DNA of 64,000 nucleotides from an uncultured Armatimonadetes bacterium (GCA_963717145.1 OY970325.1:2528001-2592000), one strand, 5' to 3'; counted from the stretch's first letter, positions 4,802-12,074 are shown. Notes: a model not told the origin generated them from the sequence alone. Numbers and translations are program-made.

Positions 4802-5760
4802 TTCGCGTCCCCCTCATAGTGCACCCAAGTGCTCGAGTGCTTGAACTGGATCAGCGTGAATACGAACAGAATGATGAACAGCACCCACGCCAGCGCCGCC
4901 GCGTAGCCCATGTGGAACTGCTCGAATGCGTGCCGGTAGAGATAGAGCACGTAGAAGAGCGTCGCGTTGTTCGGGCCGCCGCCGGTCATGACATACGCCG
5001 CCGTGAAGACCTGGAACGCGCCGATGACCCCGAGCACCATGTTGAAGAAGATTGTCGGCGTCAGGAGCGGGAGCGTCACGTGCCGGAACTGAGCGAGCGC
5101 CCCTGCCCCATCGATCCGCGCGGCCTCATAGTACTCGTCGGCGATCCCCTGCAGGCCCGCGAGGAAGATGATCATCCGCCCGCCACCGATCCCCCATAGG
5201 CTCATCAGGATGAACGCCGGGAGCGCCCACGTGCTCGACTGCAGCCACTCGGGCGGGTGCGCGATCAATGGATGGTATGCGATGCCGTGAAGCGTCGGGA
5301 GCGGGACGTTCATCGTCAGGAAGCTGTTCAGGATGCCGCGCTCGGGATGGAAGACCCACATCCAAACCAAAGCCGACGCGACCGCCGGGGTGAGCGCCGG
5401 GAGGTAGAAGAGGGTCCGGAAGACCGTGACGCCCTTGACCTTCTGGTTGAGCAGAACCGCCAGAAGAAGCGAGCCGGTCAGGCCCATCGGGACGGAGAAC
5501 AGGACGTAGAGCGCGGTGTTCGTGAGCGACTTGAAGAAGACCTCCTGCTCGCTGCCCACGAACATGCGCTGGTAGTTGCCCACGCCGACAAACGTGACAT
5601 GCTGCAGGTCGTACTTGCAGAAGCTGAGTACCAGTGACGCGAGCATCGGCCCGGCGGTGAAGATGACGAACCCCAGCAGCCAGGGACAGATGAACAGGAA
5701 TCCCCAGAAGGAGGCACGGTGAGTCAGCGGTTTCTTCGATTGTTGGCTAGGTTTCGACAT
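4798..5760 (-). CDS. Carbohydrate ABC transporter permease (MalF-like)
   Basis: FLAGLQGI..YYEAARIDGAG EAA motif; TM segments. Confidence 0.95.
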   Translation of the reverse strand: MSKPSQQSKKPLTHRASFWGFLFICPWLLGFVIFTAGPMLASLVLSFCKYDLQHVTFVGVGNYQRMFVGSEQEVFFKSLTNTALYVLFSVPMGLTGSLLLAVLLNQKVKGVTVFRTLFYLPALTPAVASALVWMWVFHPERGILNSFLTMNVPLPTLHGIAYHPLIAHPPEWLQSSTWALPAFILMSLWGIGGGRMIIFLAGLQGIADEYYEAARIDGAGALAQFRHVTLPLLTPTIFFNMVLGVIGAFQVFTAAYVMTGGGPNNATLFYVLYLYRHAFEQFHMGYAAALAWVLFIILFVFTLIQFKHSSTWVHYEGDAK

Positions 5761-6658
5761 GCTGTGATATGTCCACGCCTTTGGCGGCTAACCGATCCAG
5801 GAAGTAGTTCCCAAATGCAGTGACTCGAGGACATGCGCTCGCCGATCTCATTCCACGCTCGTCCTCGGAGATGTCTCCATACCGTAACTCGAACACATCC
5901 CTTACCAAGCCGGCCCACGGTTCACCCACATACTGATCGTATGCATCAGGAACGTGCATCTTGTTGAATAGGAACTCGCCGGTTTCAAGAAAGACCATCG
6001 CACGGGCGAAGTGGAGGATTCTCAGTGAGACCCGATGGATCCCGCCGTAGCCTCGATCCTCGCTCTCGGGGTCTGGATCGGTGAGCGGCAGGACAATCTT
6101 GCACTCCAGCGGGTGTGAGCCGTCGGTCGGGCGGCAGTGAGCCTGCTTGATCCAACAGAACGGAGACTCAAGCACGTGTTGAAGCATATCCTCCGGTCGG
6201 CTGGAAACGATCCGCGGACGGATGTCCTCGCCCCACAGGAGCTTGCTATGCTCCTTGACCGCGAGCTTCAGAACCGGCCCGCACCGCAAGCTGTCGTACA
6301 GCTCGGCGAAATCCGCCGGATCGTAGAACGGCCTCTCGACATAGTTGTACATCGGATCGAGGTTGTACTCCATCAGACGGCTCAGGTGTGCGACGATGCC
6401 GAGTCCCGTTCGACTGCACTCCTCATCAGCGCCGTCCTTCCATACGAGACAACAGTCGATGTCGCTGTCCGGCGCGACACCGCCGTGCGCATAACTCCCG
6501 ATCACGAAGAACGCGCGCAGAGAGTCGCCCACCGCAATCCCGAGCGTGTTGGCCAGACAGAACAGGAAGTCATCGATCCTGTCATCGCCAGTTGGCTCGA
6601 TGAGGTCCGATGCCTCGATGCGCGGGAATCTACTGTGTATCGCCTCTGCCCTGGTCAT
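5747..6658 (-). CDS. Nucleotidyltransferase (Pol-beta superfamily) domain protein
   Basis: hGS..G....SDhD motif (FVIGSYAHGGVAPDSDIDCCLV); likely start is ATG 6658, just after the upstream stop. Confidence 0.75.
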   Translation of the reverse strand: MTRAEAIHSRFPRIEASDLIEPTGDDRIDDFLFCLANTLGIAVGDSLRAFFVIGSYAHGGVAPDSDIDCCLVWKDGADEECSRTGLGIVAHLSRLMEYNLDPMYNYVERPFYDPADFAELYDSLRCGPVLKLAVKEHSKLLWGEDIRPRIVSSRPEDMLQHVLESPFCWIKQAHCRPTDGSHPLECKIVLPLTDPDPESEDRGYGGIHRVSLRILHFARAMVFLETGEFLFNKMHVPDAYDQYVGEPWAGLVRDVFELRYGDISEDERGMRSASACPRVTAFGNYFLDRLAAKGVDISQHVET

Positions 6659-6660
6659 CT

Positions 6661-7938
6661 CTACCAATCCTCCTCGTTGAGCGCCTGCTCGATCCTCGGC
6701 TTCATGAACGCGACCGCTTCCTTCGCGTCCAACTCGTTCGTCCACATGCGACTCAGGCCGCGATTGAGTTCTGTTGTCCACTGGATGAACTTCTTGTCGA
6801 TCGGCGGGCGCTTGCCGTAATCCATCTCGCTTCGGAACACGTCGGTATGGTATGGACGAGTGTGCGCCACCAGGTACTCCGGATCGTTGTAGACGCTCTT
6901 GCGCGTGGTGATCCAGCGCCGAAGCTTGCCGCAGATGTACATCTCCGACTTCGCGCTCGTCACGTACTTTACGAATTCGTATGCCTCCCGGGGATGCTTG
7001 CTCTCGATGTAGGTCGCCATCACGTTGCCCTTGAGCGGAGTGAACCTCCCCGCCGGACCCGCGGGCACCGGCGCGACGTCCCACTCGAACGCGCCCTTCG
7101 AGCCCTCAAGGATCACCGCCGTCTGCCCCGACCAGCCGAAGTACATGGCGATCCGTCCCGACTCGAAGCTGAACGCAGACATCGCGCCCTCCGCCGGGGT
7201 CGGCAGGACGTGATGCTTCCATCGGAGGTCCTTCATGAACTGGAGCGCGCGGATCGACTCCGGCGAGTCGAGCACGCAGCGCTTGTAGTCCGGCGTCACG
7301 AGTTCGCCGCCGAACGACCAGATCACGGTCCAGTGATGCGGCATCAGCGTCCCGAACTGAGTGTATCGCCCGCTCGAATCCTTCTTGGTGAGCGCCTTCG
7401 CGGCTTCAAGGTACTCCTTCCAGGTCCAGTGGCCCGCCGCATACTGCTCGTAGGGATCGGGGATGCCGGCCTCGCGGAACAGCGTCTTGTTGTAGTAGAG
7501 GACCTGCCCGCCGAACGCGATGTTGAACCCGTAGAGATGCCCGTTGTATGAGCACTCCACGATCGGCTGAGGGAAATAGTCGTTGATGTCCAAAGTCGGG
7601 TCGTTCTTGACGAACTCGTCGATCGGGCGGAAGTACCCCTTGCGGACGAGCGCCGGGAAGTAGTGCAGCTCGACCTTCATGACATCGGGGGCGGTCCGGC
7701 TGGCGAGCATGATCTGCTGCTTCTGGTGGTAAACCGAGTCCGGCACCATGAAGAGCTTGACCTTGATGCGCGGGTTGTCCCGCTCGAAGTTGTCGATGAT
7801 CTGCTGCTCGACCTTGAGGTGGCTGGCGTTCCCCCAGGCCATGTAGGTGATGGTAACGACGCCCGTGTCTCGGCGCGCGCATCCGCCGATGAAAACGAGC
7901 ATGAATGCAGCGATCAGATGGATTCGTGCGCGGGTCAA
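6661..7938 (-). CDS. Sugar ABC transporter substrate-binding lipoprotein
   Basis: Lipobox IGGC; LYYNKTLF..AGI, WTW, F..G.IAM motifs. Confidence 0.92.
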   Translation of the reverse strand: MTRARIHLIAAFMLVFIGGCARRDTGVVTITYMAWGNASHLKVEQQIIDNFERDNPRIKVKLFMVPDSVYHQKQQIMLASRTAPDVMKVELHYFPALVRKGYFRPIDEFVKNDPTLDINDYFPQPIVECSYNGHLYGFNIAFGGQVLYYNKTLFREAGIPDPYEQYAAGHWTWKEYLEAAKALTKKDSSGRYTQFGTLMPHHWTVIWSFGGELVTPDYKRCVLDSPESIRALQFMKDLRWKHHVLPTPAEGAMSAFSFESGRIAMYFGWSGQTAVILEGSKGAFEWDVAPVPAGPAGRFTPLKGNVMATYIESKHPREAYEFVKYVTSAKSEMYICGKLRRWITTRKSVYNDPEYLVAHTRPYHTDVFRSEMDYGKRPPIDKKFIQWTTELNRGLSRMWTNELDAKEAVAFMKPRIEQALNEEDW

Positions 7939-8191
7939 CTTACCCTCTGGCAGAGTGATCGCCCCTCACAGGGACGTGCCAGAGTATTACTCACCACCCG
8001 CGCCTTTTCCTTCAGATCAGGGTCTGGAGTAGTACAGGTGCGCACTACCGTCGTCGTCGGATCAGTGCGCCGAGTGCGAGAGGCCGCCTCCGAGCGCCCG
8101 AGCTGCCCCCGCAAGCGAGGCCTTGCCCTCATGCACGTTCCGAGGCACGTGAAAGCGATGCACGTGCGTCTACACCAGACAATCCGACTGC

Positions 8192-8221
8192 TTGACATTC
8201 CGGGCCGCCCGACCTTACACT
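8192..8221 (+). promoter_or_regulatory. Putative sigma70 promoter for the 8408-11918 locus
   Basis: TTGACA-N18-TACACT. Confidence 0.4.
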
Positions 8222-8407
8222 GTGAATCACCAAAGTGACATGCGTAGAGCTGCGAGGCAACACTATGGTAGAAGAGACCAAGTACGTCTGGTGGACGCTA
8301 TCCTATACGCCCCGAAGTTGGGTGGAATTTCCCTGCATGTCCTATTCCTGCTTTACATTTATTGCATCGCATGCCGGCTGTAGAGCTGCTGGACCAAGGA
8401 GTACATT

Positions 8408-11374
8408 ATGGAGACTTGGAGGCGCTGGGACGGTCCCGATACTTCATCCGATTATCTCAGCCTCTTAGCTGGATGTGCCAGCGAGGCGCTGTATACCCTT
8501 TTCGGACGGCTGTATTACAGCGTCGCGGGACAGCCGATGAAGGAGGTCCTGGACTTCGCCAACCAGTGCTACGTACAGGCCAAGGATAACCAGGCATGGG
8601 ACGACATCTTAGCGCGATTCGCGGCTTCAGGGGCACCAGGTATGTTCGCCATGGTCGGCGACGCGGGAGTGGGTAAGACCGAGTATCTCTCTCACTTTGC
8701 TTTCGAGACGTGCGCTCTAACCGGGGACAGCCCGACAGTTGCACTATTCGTCTCATTTGATACAGGAGGCGCACACTGGACCGATAAGATCAATCGAAAC
8801 ATCGACCAATTCATATGCGAGAACTATCGTGTTCTTTCCCAGCTTCATGCTGATCTGCCTGAGCAGATAGCTGTTTTTCGGAAGGCCTTCGGATATGATA
8901 CAGACCTTGATCCTACACCCTCAGGTTTTGATATTGTCCGCGTGCTTCGAACAAAGATAATGGGCCGCGTTGTGGAAGGCTTGAGAAGCAAGGGTCGGAA
9001 TCTGCTGTTGATTATAGACAATGTGGATCAGAGCGACACCAGACAACAAGAGGATCTCATTTCGAGAAGAGAGGAACTCCACAGGGAACTCCCTTGTCCT
9101 GTAGTGGTCTCCATACGGCCAGAGACGGCGGCACGATTGCGTCGCGACCTCGGCCGGCTCTTTAGTGTGTTGCCATCGTTTCGAAGAAAGATGCCCGCGC
9201 CGTTGGCTGAAGTGTTGGAGCGTCGCATTCGTTACCTGATCGACTACGGTGCACAGGACCGACGTTTCAGCGGGCTTGTAATACCAGTTTACCACGGTGC
9301 GGGCCGTGTTACAGTGGATTTCTCTGTTGTCCTGCAGGGCTTGTTGACGTTGATGCAGCAGCCGTTCTGCGTTACGCCAACTTCACCCGCGGTCACGTTT
9401 CTTGATCTAGCCAGCCGGCTGTGTAACGAGACCAGCCTCACAGCGGCTCTCACCCAGATCGTAGGCACGCTCGCGTCCGGACACCTGCCCGCTGAACTCA
9501 TGACACGTGTCATGTCAGGCTATAGACTTGACCTTGTGGATCCTGAAGCGCTGATTGCCGCGCTAGTGCTAGGCTCAGACACGCGGTATACCGAATACGC
9601 TGAGCACGGAAGGGCAGGGAGTTCGGTGATCAATCTGTATGACTGCAACCTGCGCCAGATGCCACGAGGACCGCTTTACACGTGGCTCAGGCCTCTATGT
9701 TTGATAGCACCCCATGCGGAATCGGGCCCAATCCCGCACGCTGAGCTGGTATCTAGTATGTGCCAAGCGTGGCCTCAGAGAGTTTGCTCAGAAGACGTTG
9801 AAGCGACAGTCCGCCTGCTCCTAGGCCACCGCCTACTGAATGAAGATAACGATGGCTTATCAATCACTCACGCCGGAGAGTCGTATATCGACACGCTTGC
9901 CGTTTCCCGGGTCTACCTTGATTCCGTCCATCGACGAACCATGCGGGATGACGAGCCACTTGCTGCCCACCGAGGAAGAAGTCGTCTGGTTCGTGATATT
10001 CTTGCTTTTGAAGTGTTTCTCTCGCGCACCCTCAGAGAACTCACGGAAACCTGCGAGGCTGAGAGGGTAGAAGCATGGCTGGGATTCCTGGGAGAATACA
10101 CACTTAATAGAATAACGCTGCGCACCCAGGACTACGTTCAGCGCCTACTTGCCAGACAGGTGCATACGACGGAATGGGTCTGTAGTGACTGCCCGCAATG
10201 TGTCCTCTTCGGAAAGCGAGCGTCTGTTCCAAAGGAGATCACCGCAAGACTGGATTATCCCAACCCATGGCTGGCAATGGAGGCATCGGATGTGGCCGTC
10301 GAGACCGGAGCGACCTGGACACAGATGCGTTATTTCTTTGATGGCGAAGTACTGTCTGTCATATGCAGTGAACCCACCGCTTGTGGTGCACCATGCCCGG
10401 GACCGGTCCGTTTGGATCTCACGGGTTGGATCGACTCGGACACCTACAATGGTGAGTCTGCTTTAAATCGCCAAGTGCTCGAAGAAGAAGACAGACCGCG
10501 CCACGTGACCAGGAATGGTGGACCAAGCAACGGCGACCTTCGAGTCCGTATCAGCTACGCGGAGATAGACTCCGCTACTGCGAGACGGGTGGTTGCTCAA
10601 CTCGCAGCAGACGGAGTTCTAGTCGACCAAGCGAACTACAGCGCATCTGTGCAGGGGTCAGCGGGGCTAGTCGGTACGGTTCTGGCCGCAGGAGACTGTC
10701 TTATCGTCTTGCTGTCACCCGGGGCAGTAGAGTCCGCTGAGTTGCGGCCCATTCTGGAGGGGGTGGGGTCTGGTGAACTGTCTAGCAGAGACATAACCGT
10801 CATTCTGGCGATGATCGAAGACTGCGAGGTTCCGGATGAACTGAGGGACTACTGCCTCTTAGATATGCGAACAAGCTTCAGCGAGGGCGTGTCAACACTA
10901 GCAAGAAAGCTGCGGTCGGCAAGTAGGCTGGATTTCTCCAAACTGAACGATGACGAGTTCCAAAGGCTTGCGCTCAATGTCGCGGAGAGGCTGGGATTTG
11001 TTGAGTGGGCTCTGGATGGGACAGATCAACCAGCCGGCGATGCAGCCTCTATACCAGCCGACACGGTGTTGGCGCATCGTGACATGCCGACTGCGGTGTC
11101 TGCTGAGACCTGGGTGATTGCTGCCAGATTGTACCCACAGGCTAGGGTCGATCTCAGGTCTCTACGCCGGCTCCGCGAGAATGTGCACAAACACGCCGGA
11201 TTGAAGGGCGGTCTTCTTGTGACAAACACTCATCTAACTTCCGCGGCACAACATTGGCTCCGCGAAACTCAGAACGATCCCCCAATGATTCAGGTCATAG
11301 ACGGGGCAAGACTGAAGACTCTGTTACTGCAGTACGACGATCTGGCTGAAAAATACTTCCGACGCAGCTGTTGA
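8408..11374 (+). CDS. Multidomain protein: P-loop NTPase + TIR-like domain + Mrr-like restriction endonuclease fold
   Basis: Walker A GDAGVGKT, Walker B LLLIIDNVD; TIR-like VRISYAEIDS...LIVLLSP..V.S...IEDCEVPDEL; Mrr-like DFSKLNDDEFQRL...LGF...GGLLVTN...IQVIDGARLKTLL; RBS AAGGAG; codon style differs from flanking genes. Confidence 0.7.
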   Translation: METWRRWDGPDTSSDYLSLLAGCASEALYTLFGRLYYSVAGQPMKEVLDFANQCYVQAKDNQAWDDILARFAASGAPGMFAMVGDAGVGKTEYLSHFAFETCALTGDSPTVALFVSFDTGGAHWTDKINRNIDQFICENYRVLSQLHADLPEQIAVFRKAFGYDTDLDPTPSGFDIVRVLRTKIMGRVVEGLRSKGRNLLLIIDNVDQSDTRQQEDLISRREELHRELPCPVVVSIRPETAARLRRDLGRLFSVLPSFRRKMPAPLAEVLERRIRYLIDYGAQDRRFSGLVIPVYHGAGRVTVDFSVVLQGLLTLMQQPFCVTPTSPAVTFLDLASRLCNETSLTAALTQIVGTLASGHLPAELMTRVMSGYRLDLVDPEALIAALVLGSDTRYTEYAEHGRAGSSVINLYDCNLRQMPRGPLYTWLRPLCLIAPHAESGPIPHAELVSSMCQAWPQRVCSEDVEATVRLLLGHRLLNEDNDGLSITHAGESYIDTLAVSRVYLDSVHRRTMRDDEPLAAHRGRSRLVRDILAFEVFLSRTLRELTETCEAERVEAWLGFLGEYTLNRITLRTQDYVQRLLARQVHTTEWVCSDCPQCVLFGKRASVPKEITARLDYPNPWLAMEASDVAVETGATWTQMRYFFDGEVLSVICSEPTACGAPCPGPVRLDLTGWIDSDTYNGESALNRQVLEEEDRPRHVTRNGGPSNGDLRVRISYAEIDSATARRVVAQLAADGVLVDQANYSASVQGSAGLVGTVLAAGDCLIVLLSPGAVESAELRPILEGVGSGELSSRDITVILAMIEDCEVPDELRDYCLLDMRTSFSEGVSTLARKLRSASRLDFSKLNDDEFQRLALNVAERLGFVEWALDGTDQPAGDAASIPADTVLAHRDMPTAVSAETWVIAARLYPQARVDLRSLRRLRENVHKHAGLKGGLLVTNTHLTSAAQHWLRETQNDPPMIQVIDGARLKTLLLQYDDLAEKYFRRSC

Positions 11375-11378
11375 AGAG

Positions 11379-11918
11379 ATGAATCTCGCCACTGATTTCG
11401 TCAATAGACTCGAATGCTGTCCAGCGGGTCAGAAGGGATGGAGAACCTTTGAAGACCTGTGCGTGGACATTCTCATCCACCTATTCGTTCCGCCGCTATC
11501 TGCACCCAGAGTCCAGTCCAGTTCGACTTCCTGTACAGACCGACGCGATGCCATCTTTCCGAACAGAAATCTGTCGGATATCACCCCATGGGGGTTTCTA
11601 TTCCACGACCTCAAAGCTCGAATGATATTGTTCGACTTTAAGAACTATCATAGCAAAGAGATAGGTAAAGACCAGGTAGATCAGATTGCGGCCTATATGA
11701 GAGAACCCTGGGGTCAGCTCGCGCTGGCAGTGTGTAGCAAGGAGCCTTCCCCGAGTGCTCGAGTACGTCAGCGTGCCCTGCTTGACCGCAAAGGGACGGT
11801 GATAGTTCTCTTGACAAAGGAGCAACTCAAGGAAATGCTCTATATCAAGGAGCGAGGTGATGATCCTGCTCGCCTGATCTTGGACTTGATCGAAGACCTG
11901 TACTGCTCATCCGACTGA
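11379..11918 (+). CDS. PD-(D/E)XK restriction-endonuclease-like protein
   Basis: CPAG..GW..FE.LC..IL..LF.PPL...RRDAIFPN...ILFDFKNY (E...D...DxK); starts 4 bp after the previous stop. Confidence 0.7.
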   Translation: MNLATDFVNRLECCPAGQKGWRTFEDLCVDILIHLFVPPLSAPRVQSSSTSCTDRRDAIFPNRNLSDITPWGFLFHDLKARMILFDFKNYHSKEIGKDQVDQIAAYMREPWGQLALAVCSKEPSPSARVRQRALLDRKGTVIVLLTKEQLKEMLYIKERGDDPARLILDLIEDLYCSSD

Positions 11919-12074
11919 CGGCATAGCCGAATGGCATCGATTTTCGTGCAGACTTGGTAATCCGTCCCATTCACCTCCCGATTCGTGAGCGGTATGGCAG
12001 CAGTATGAGCCCGCATGAGACAGATGGGACGTATGGGACCGATGTGACGCTCTGTCCCTATTCGCCCATTCGTG

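Follow-up and report, generated by a model that had tools for sequence, protein, structure and literature searches.

Within a 64,000-nucleotide (nt) stretch of DNA from an uncultured Armatimonadetes bacterium (GCA_963717145.1 OY970325.1:2528001-2592000; hereafter the window), two adjacent genes encode a 988-amino-acid (aa) protein and a 179-aa nuclease. The large protein consists, in order, of a nucleoside triphosphatase (NTPase), a helical and winged-helix region, a four-Cys element, a TIR domain and an Mrr-like domain, the last two without their catalytic residues. The reading we favour, to which we give about an even chance, is that the NTPase acts as a sensor and uses the pseudo-enzyme TIR-Mrr module as an adaptor to control the trans-acting nuclease. 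The last 288 aa of the large protein and the small gene together are, by sequence comparison, a diverged copy of a widespread and catalytically intact two-gene cassette. An earlier sequence-based account (the original prediction) had proposed a non-catalytic sensor or scaffold controlling a partner nuclease. In silico, that idea finds support: the sites are lost, the folds are kept, and the two proteins are predicted to bind. What it missed is that the TIR-Mrr and nuclease pair is not a new architecture; only the NTPase, the fusion and the double inactivation are peculiar to this genome. Its gene and domain calls hold: both open reading frames (ORFs) are where it placed them, with 4 nt between the TGA stop of the large gene and the ATG of the small one, and Pfam, the AlphaFold model, VIA-align and a paralog alignment between them confirm the Walker A and B motifs, the Cys-rich middle and the TIR-like and Mrr-like domains.

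The cassette is found in a Pyrinomonadaceae metagenome-assembled genome (MAG; locus L005), where the gene for a 288-aa TIR-Mrr protein overlaps that of the 179-aa homolog by 4 nt. This partner matches the Pfam families TIR_2 with 72.6 bits and Mrr_cat with 48.7 bits, and residues 701-988 of the window protein align with it from end to end (31% identity, E 6e-43). Scanning genome contigs with a single sequence gave 2 loci, and alignment-based scans supplied the rest of 83 foreign loci (80 metagenome loci from 198 confirmed stretches, 1 from a viral collection and 2 genome loci), several of which are duplicates of one another. In 75 of these loci, the ORF that immediately precedes the nuclease gene on its strand matches TIR-Mrr (phmmer E 1e-188 to 7e-13). 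Among the other eight loci, four have less than 170 nt of upstream contig, one (L006) holds a remnant, and L050, L058 and L064 do have a TIR-Mrr gene; the pair is present in 78 of the 79 loci with room for it. Spacing is tight: the TIR-Mrr stop lies within 32 nt of the start of the tblastn match in 73 of 75 loci, and the genes overlap in 36. Partner proteins of the ordinary cassette score 68-124 bits against TIR_2, and across 52 of them the catalytic TIR Glu and Mrr E/D/E/K are conserved. The pairwise identities of the two proteins correlate over 52 loci with r 0.84, which none of 999 Mantel permutations reaches, although kinship alone would give much of this value; this correlation indicates that the two cassette genes are inherited as a unit. 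No third gene is conserved among the neighbours of 23 long cassette loci. The window locus has the same layout, in that a TIR-Mrr homolog directly precedes a member of the 179-aa family on one strand, and its 700-aa N-terminal NTPase is not seen in any other cassette locus examined. The distribution of the cassette across phyla is patchy.

Several loci show variants of this arrangement. The longest partners reach 436-465 aa, with an additional TIR domain or an extension of unknown kind: in L036, L037 and L039 the partner (436 aa, for example L036 4677-5987) carries two tandem TIR domains followed by Mrr, and the 465-aa TIR-Mrr gene product of L052 has an N-terminal extension. The TIR-Mrr gene of L058, and of L064, which duplicates it, encodes 330 aa. 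A Mutator-family transposase of 398 aa, on the opposite strand, is inserted between the TIR-Mrr and nuclease genes of L050 (3742-6513). In an Altiarchaeota MAG (L006 3505-4158), the nuclease gene is read through from a remnant of the Mrr C-terminus and looks degraded or mis-assembled. The only match in the viral-contig collection, L087 1-1700, has a partner ORF of at least 379 aa that is cut by the contig end; its Mrr domain is present, and it has no TIR match in Pfam at E<=1e-5.

Both folds of the TIR-Mrr module are retained in the window protein. TIR_2 (PF13676) matches residues 713-831 with 27.3 bits, just under the cut-off of 28, and VIA-align matches TIR structures (RPS4/RRS1, Cat1, MAL and TRR-2) over residues 708-842 at Z 13.2-12.9. 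Mrr_cat (PF04471) matches residues 845-973 with 32.7 bits, above its cut-off of 21, and the structural matches over residues 841-987 are AspBHI (Z 12.2), AF1548 (Z 11.7) and MspJI (Z 10.7). The AlphaFold model of residues 712-988 has a confidence (predicted local distance difference test, pLDDT) of about 90.

The catalytic residues are a different matter. Residues 701-988 of the window protein were aligned with 52 non-redundant partners of 277-335 aa, and truncated, longer and duplicate partner ORFs were excluded from this 53-row alignment. At the Trp column of the TIR motif, 45 of 52 partners have W and the window protein has E778; at the catalytic Glu column, 49 partners have E, the others D, T or M, and the window protein has I782. 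The Mrr columns behave alike: E852 (E in 50 of 52) is Q in the window, D883 (D in all 52) is P, E905 (E in 46, Q in 5) is A, and K907 (K in 49, R in 2) is R. The original prediction had judged by eye that the TIR domain lacks its catalytic Glu and the Mrr domain its Q/ExK residues; the alignment bears this out, with all six positions changed and none of the expected residues present. The window protein is the sole row of 53 changed at all six, and the sole one without the Mrr Asp. At least 85% of partners agree at 45 positions, and of these it is changed at 6 of 6 active-site positions versus 8 of 39 others (Fisher p 3.7e-4); further near-invariant TIR positions are altered as F714R, S762G and P800L. 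Because the changes are concentrated on the active site while the folds are modelled with high confidence, the pattern reads as the targeted inactivation of a pseudo-enzyme and not as random or general decay. Some relatives show single-site losses: in L019, L085 and L044 a T, M or D stands in for the TIR Glu, and in L059 H/N for the Mrr E/K. Given the loss of the TIR Glu from L019 and L085, and of the Mrr E/K from L059, each enzyme activity is apparently dispensable in some cassette lineages.

The 179-aa protein presents the opposite picture, with its nuclease motif intact, as the original prediction had claimed. Its family comprises at least 347 proteins at E <= 0.001 (391 candidates scored), nearly all of 179 aa and about 50% identical; the source names include Clostridium, Nostoc, Crinalium, Microvirga, Chloroflexia and Blastocatellia, and the window protein is 46-54% identical to family members. 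E25, D57, K88, Q102 and a C-terminal K-E-R-G...D..E..Y block are invariant in 40 aligned members, and the window protein keeps E25, D57, K88 and Q102 with the motif D86-F-K88. Position 86 is E in at least 90% of the family and D here, which lies within the PD-(D/E)xK rule. The AlphaFold model of the small protein has a pLDDT of 90.4. In Foldseek, the MspJI nuclease domain is the best match (1.9e-4), alongside FokI, AspBHI, Nt.BspD6I and Shedu. When the model was aligned against 48,161 representative Protein Data Bank (PDB) chains, the top match was the R.BspD6I small subunit (2p14; Z 12.1, root-mean-square deviation 3.2, 152 of 186 residues aligned), followed by the cleavage domains of N.BspD6I (2ewf, Z 12.1) and FokI (2fok, Z 11.8). 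These three matches all span the whole 179 aa at 12-13% identity, and a sequence search of PDB chains gives 0 matches. On this model, the small protein qualifies as a FokI/BspD6I-type cleavage module with an intact D...(D/E)xK motif. Cleavage modules of the FokI and BspD6I kind have no DNA specificity of their own and need to pair with a second module before they cut. In the small protein, a single nuclease domain takes up all 179 aa; no signal-binding domain is recognisable, and there is no room for one.

Two closer assignments of the small protein were rejected. The profiles of its family and of the TIR-Mrr family line up at the catalytic motifs, but their comparison is not significant (probability 5%, E 0.0075), so close paralogy of the two nuclease domains is not supported. 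The PADLOC model PDC-M36A (457 aa) is matched at positions 301-435 only (2.1e-13), which is a partial match, and a true full-length PDC-M36A lies elsewhere in the genome. That homolog, of 464 aa (6.6e-229; L091 622-2016, plus strand; G000:C1, about 4.6276-4.6290 Mb), has a C-terminal domain distantly related to the 179-aa nuclease (profile E 1.5e-15).

Structure prediction supports binding between the dead TIR-Mrr module and the small nuclease. Residues 701-988 of the window protein were modelled with the small protein, each with its own family alignment, in three runs with 3 controls. The interface score ipSAE (interaction prediction score from aligned errors) is 0.71, the median of 0.00, 0.71 and 0.76, against 0.01 for the best of the 3 controls; contacts agree between runs to at least 72%, and the pLDDT of the partners is at least 78. 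In calibration, 116 of 157 solved complexes attained the mark applied here, as did 2 of 215 mismatched pairs; with custom alignments, as supplied here, these counts are only a rough guide. Because the small protein has no sequence match in the PDB and a TIR-Mrr profile run against solved structures matches only isolated TIR domains, it is unlikely that the result is a memory of a solved complex. The confident contacts join residues 148-176 of the small protein to residues 915-920 and 941-950 of the large one and to TIR residues 759-762 and 793-795. The interface includes E158, R159, G160, D169 and E172 of the small protein and T944 and S945 of the large one; these, together with small-protein E152 and large-protein R794, are among its invariant positions.

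The same predicted binding and the tight gene coupling would also suit an antitoxin-like arrangement, in which the dead TIR-Mrr module would hold the nuclease inactive until, on infection, the NTPase lets it go or is itself degraded, leaving a toxic enzyme at large to kill the cell or arrest it. The use of the nuclease's conserved C-terminal helices at the interface would agree with such sequestration. Yet the small protein most closely resembles, in structure, cleavage modules that need a partner, and the nuclease site retained by the ordinary cassette partner speaks for a joint nuclease more than for an inhibitor. We consider sequestration decidedly unlikely.

A signalling mechanism of the Thoeris kind is far less probable still, and we give it hardly any weight. 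There, the TIR domain would make a signal derived from nicotinamide adenine dinucleotide (NAD+), perhaps through E778, and the nuclease would be the signal-activated effector. The juxtaposition of a TIR gene and an effector-like gene is indeed the Thoeris layout, cassette partners match ThsB models weakly (5.6e-7), and a December 2025 preprint predicts 29 Thoeris types, some with DNase effectors (10.64898/2025.12.03.692087). The window TIR, however, lacks both the W and the catalytic E of the motif and is altered at the three further near-invariant positions given above, and the effector has no space for a known signal-binding domain. Direct contact between the two proteins is predicted instead, and the relatives L019 and L085 also have no acidic residue at the TIR Glu column, where L044 has Asp. 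Assignment of the window locus to Thoeris was rejected, as neither protein matches ThsA or ThsB at E<=1 and the nuclease is a single domain.

The adaptor reading places the sensing function in the N-terminal part of the large protein, which is provisionally called an AAA+/STAND-type P-loop NTPase. In Pfam, AAA_16 matches residues 72-217 with 28.6 bits (cut-off 32.6) and NACHT residues 81-251 with 22.1 bits (cut-off 26.7). Foldseek returns weak RdrA and ORC/Cdc6 matches, with an Avs5 row that is weak and of low probability, and small shares of the language-model look-alikes have KAP, AAA_16 or ORC-CDC6-like domains. VIA-align of the 988-aa model barely probes this part, the result list being filled by the TIR domain. 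C598, C653, C659 and C663 are conserved between the large protein and its paralog in an alignment of the two, and the element that contains them is a putative metal-binding or sensor module.

Relatives of the NTPase are exceedingly few. A word-index search with the full 988-aa protein, in which only the 7998 candidates sharing most words were scored, matched only the protein itself and a paralog in the same genome. An exhaustive phmmer search with residues 1-700 against 1.84 billion representatives found one real relative, the same 705-aa paralog, which is 44% identical over residues 1-672 and ends just where TIR-Mrr begins in the large protein. The search also returned six weak P-loop matches (2e-7 to 6.5e-4), three with sub-threshold AAA_16/NACHT-type Pfam matches and three with none, and no recognisable effector domains among them; four of the six, compared with PADLOC, gave no match. 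These six were accordingly rejected as classifiers of the NTPase. Searching PDB sequences with a profile built from the two paralogs yields only P-loop noise (E >= 0.1), and the NTPase is found in 0 of 40 related genomes.

The paralog (L088 7206-9323, minus strand; L002/L088, G000:C1:893000-912000) carries no TIR-Mrr module. Upstream of it, at a distance of about 610 nt, is a 331-aa gene that matches SIR2 defence models weakly but more than once (PADLOC Aga_SIR2 5e-8, SIR2 7e-7); this neighbour has no Pfam match at 0.001 and no PDB sequence match, so its label rests on the weak PADLOC SIR2 matches. The surroundings include an rve integrase, two IS66 transposase ORFs and a truncated isocitrate/isopropylmalate dehydrogenase gene. 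At the paralog locus, this orphan NTPase may be the basis of a second system, one that uses SIR2. Given this position downstream of a SIR2-like gene, the NTPase module is seen twice with partners of the NAD-enzyme type, TIR here and SIR2-like at the paralog.

The association with defence is drawn from the cassette relatives and not from the window locus. The nearest neighbours at 23 long loci (95 proteins) were classified by Pfam, and a selection by PADLOC. LmuB adjoins the cassette in L041 (2e-165), PDC-S06 in L057 (6e-182), an Old-family ATPase-TOPRIM in L086 (6e-73) and PDC-M54A in L055 (1e-146), while L044 has a type IV methyl-directed restriction endonuclease (REase; 4e-91), a ThsA-like SIR2 protein and a MalT-type STAND protein. 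In L052 (3502-7708), the cassette lies inside a Type I restriction-modification operon, with hsdM on one side and an hsdS-like gene on the other. Other neighbours are DUF4238 in L069, a Schlafen AlbA_2 protein in L084, a DrmC-like PLD in L074 and a further TIR protein in L034; integrases or transposases occur in L026, L035, L050 and L058, and ordinary genes elsewhere (UvrC in L005, peptidases in L059). The expected link to defence islands is partly upheld: relatives are often flanked by defence genes, and the window locus itself does not lie in a defence island.

A role outside defence, such as stabilising a mobile element or processing host DNA, would accommodate the relatives that adjoin transposases or integrases, the relative on a contig of the viral collection and the housekeeping neighbours of the window locus. 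We regard it as very unlikely, because many relatives are flanked by recognised defence genes and the cassette is scattered across phyla in the patchy manner typical of defence genes.

The window copy could also be a decaying relic, that is, a cassette freed from selection after transfer and accidentally fused, now in early pseudogenisation and part of an inert operon. This relic account and several observations weigh against the adaptor reading. E778 sits four residues before the lost TIR Glu (I782), and residual TIR chemistry is conceivable. Because the N-terminal half is poorly modelled (pLDDT mostly <60), any family assignment of the NTPase (STAND, ORC/Cdc6-like or KAP-like) and any assembly behaviour are tentative. 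One of the three complex runs scored 0.00; mean interface conservation equals that of the rest of each protein (0.55 vs 0.55 for the large one, 0.74 vs 0.74 for the small one); and the small protein carries R in place of D165, an interface residue that is otherwise invariant. Each protein diverges further from its family than any other member: the TIR-Mrr module has a mean identity of 29% to its family against 40% among partners, and the small protein 49% against 65% among the 40 aligned members, with changes at 16 of 77 near-invariant positions (median 1, maximum 8) and the longest terminal branch. Such divergence would fit relaxed selection as well. No known defence genes stand beside the window locus, which is flanked by an ABC sugar-uptake operon on one side and by a URO-D-like gene and a DinG-like helicase gene on the other.

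To these points the relic account can add the loss of every TIR and Mrr catalytic residue and the confinement of the locus to a single genome, the NTPase being absent from the 40 relatives and the small-protein family from 300 other sampled genomes of the same phylum. Several features argue the other way. Both reading frames are intact over 3.5 kb, and the changes fall on the active site at the significance given above, whereas core positions, fold confidence, the Walker motifs and the catalytic residues of the small nuclease are kept. Binding is still predicted, and the 44%-identical paralog implies long-standing maintenance of the NTPase family. On balance a relic appears unlikely, with a chance that is small but by no means negligible.

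The coordinates of the features are collected in Table 1. The two-gene operon occupies an islet of lower GC content (0.53-0.56 over approximately 8000-12000, against 0.60-0.62 in both flanks), bordered by an ABC-transporter solute-binding gene (minus strand, ending at 7938) and the URO-D-like gene (minus strand, from 12075). This GC dip, together with the absence of the small-protein family from the 300 other sampled genomes of the phylum, points to horizontal acquisition of the operon. The islet edges, searched for direct repeats and att-like sites, show none of note, and a terminator scan stays at chance level. The promoter candidate of the original prediction does have a counterpart in a site at 8192-8221, but this is a consensus match only, and a weak one, as the region holds 6 promoter-like sites against 2.8 expected in shuffles. 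Outside the locus, a 445-aa ORF at 5747-7084 of the window (minus strand) has a weak NTP_transf_2 match and shares the end of the solute-binding-protein gene in a different frame; the GTG assigned to it as start is probably too far upstream.

Table 1. Features of the two-gene locus in window coordinates (residue numbers refer to the 988-aa protein)
Feature	Coordinates	Strand	Basis or remark
Large gene (988 aa)	8408..11374	+	ORF, Pfam, AlphaFold model, fold searches
P-loop NTPase core, aa 72-251	8621..9160	+	AAA_16/NACHT below cut-off; motifs invariant with paralog
Walker A, G84-E92	8657-8683	+	Intact, common to paralog
Walker B, L200-Q208	9005-9031	+	Intact, common to paralog
Winged-helix-like element, aa ~422-497	9671..9898	+	pLDDT ~65-82; winged helix-turn-helix proteins at Z ~10 (VIA-align)
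Beta-rich Cys element, aa ~590-670	10175..10417	+	Strands in model, low pLDDT; 4 Cys shared with paralog
TIR-fold domain, aa 712-842	10541..10933	+	Without the family W..E motif (E778, I782)
Mrr-like PD-(D/E)xK fold, aa 843-988	10934..11371	+	Q852, P883, A905, R907 at the four catalytic positions
Small gene (179 aa)	11379..11918	+	Single-domain nuclease like the FokI/BspD6I small subunit, PD-(D/E)xK motif intact
Lower-GC islet holding the operon	7939..12074		GC profile and flanking genes
Promoter-like TTGACA-18-TACACT	8192..8221	+	10/12 consensus matches
Shine-Dalgarno-like AAGGAG	8396..8401	+	6 nt upstream of the large-gene ATG

Comparison with known systems places the locus near several of them. 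PADLOC 2.0 has no full-length model for either cassette protein, and its matches to the window proteins are at the level of domains only (the Mrr part matches PDC-S02, and the small protein the last third of PDC-M36A); NCBIfam gives zero matches for either. Neither a name for the cassette nor a test of it was found in the literature, with the reservation that Figure 1 and Table S1 of 10.64898/2025.12.03.692087, both unreadable, may list it; within that limit, the original claim that no named system matches agrees with PADLOC 2.0 and the literature. In 10.64898/2026.01.22.701046, mentions of Mrr concern Lamassu-Mrr only, and PMC13581612 supplies STAND background only. The architecture, in which a widespread and apparently unnamed cassette has been fused to an NTPase and doubly inactivated, is unique.

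The free-standing cassette is the natural point of reference: both parts are homologous, with the same gene order, tight spacing and the same predicted relation between partners, but the window copy carries a 700-aa N-terminal NTPase and has lost all six active-site positions. The heterodimeric restriction endonuclease R.BspD6I, in which the nickase Nt.BspD6I is the large subunit and the small subunit is catalytic, offers a parallel of a different sort. Its small subunit of 186 aa resembles the 179-aa protein in being a bare cleavage module beside a larger protein with a second REase-fold domain. Unlike R.BspD6I and FokI, with which identity is only 12-13% and no sequence-level PDB match exists, the partner here has TIR and NTPase parts instead of a DNA-recognition domain, its REase site is dead, and no methyltransferase is associated.

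Avs (AVAST) systems likewise join a P-loop NTPase to TIR and REase-type modules, and the weak AAA_16/NACHT matches recall them. The window protein, however, has no match to Avs or other NLR models in PADLOC; its effector-type domains are C-terminal and dead, with the active nuclease as a separate protein, and in place of TPR-like or other repeat sensors, none of which is found, there is only the short four-Cys element on a near-orphan NTPase. Comparative genomics predicts neighbourhoods that combine an Orc/Cdc6-type ATPase, an inactive REase (iREase) and an active REase (PMC10853773). The window locus shares an ATPase, an inactive REase domain and a separate active REase with these, and its NTPase has weak ORC/Cdc6 fold matches. 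In the neighbourhoods described there, the iREase is inserted between the ATPase and the winged helix-turn-helix domain, and a HerA/FtsK gene belongs to the set (PMC10853773), whereas here the iREase comes from the TIR-Mrr cassette and no HerA/FtsK is present. Membership of the Pfam family NA-iREase1 (NACHT-associated inactive REase 1) was rejected at 14.9 bits against a cut-off of 27. A further parallel is found in the Mrr-TIR-APAZ proteins of short-pAgo systems (SPARTA clade S2A; PMC9097488). These also hold Mrr and TIR in one defence polypeptide, and the TIR matches include a SPARTA TIR-APAZ structure; their two domains follow each other the other way round, though, the window protein has no APAZ or Argonaute partner, and the TIR there is an NADase effector. 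By analogy, the window locus would work most like a STAND-type sensor driving a nuclease, with a nuclease split like that of BspD6I.

Drawing these strands together, we infer a defence function for the window copy, with a trigger, NTP-driven assembly and activation by pairing. In the proposed mechanism, a genome-specific AAA+/STAND-type NTPase (residues 1 to about 670) would have been fused to the front of a TIR-Mrr and 179-aa nuclease cassette. The dead TIR-Mrr module would serve as the adaptor, its Mrr-like domain docking on the conserved C-terminal helices of the nuclease. Sensing would fall to the NTPase, its trigger probably coming from an invading phage or another mobile element, and nucleotide-dependent assembly would then gather the bound nuclease subunits or free them. 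The nuclease, incomplete on its own and dependent on pairing as FokI and the R.BspD6I small subunit are, would thereupon cut DNA. A broader view, which we hold only tentatively and think less probable than its opposite, is that the cassette is a widespread, uncharacterised defence system in which TIR-Mrr is foremost a docking and assembly platform, captured here by an orphan NTPase with both enzyme activities dispensable, which would make the window copy a natural separation-of-function variant.

With a single paralog and nothing convincing beyond it in 1.84 billion representatives, the NTPase illustrates how close to an orphan a sensor module can be. The cassette to which it is joined is compact, very conserved and present in many phyla, often among defence genes, with at least 347 protein clusters and 198 metagenome stretches, and its intact relatives together with the dead fusion form a natural mutant series for cassette function. 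To our knowledge, bacterial defence TIRs have so far been understood as enzymes that deplete NAD+ or make signals. If the module is a pseudo-enzyme adaptor, the protein-protein role of TIR-Mrr can stand alone. In animals, MyD88 and MAL use TIR as an adaptor; if the broader view of the cassette is true, this locus would show a bacterial TIR used purely in the same way.

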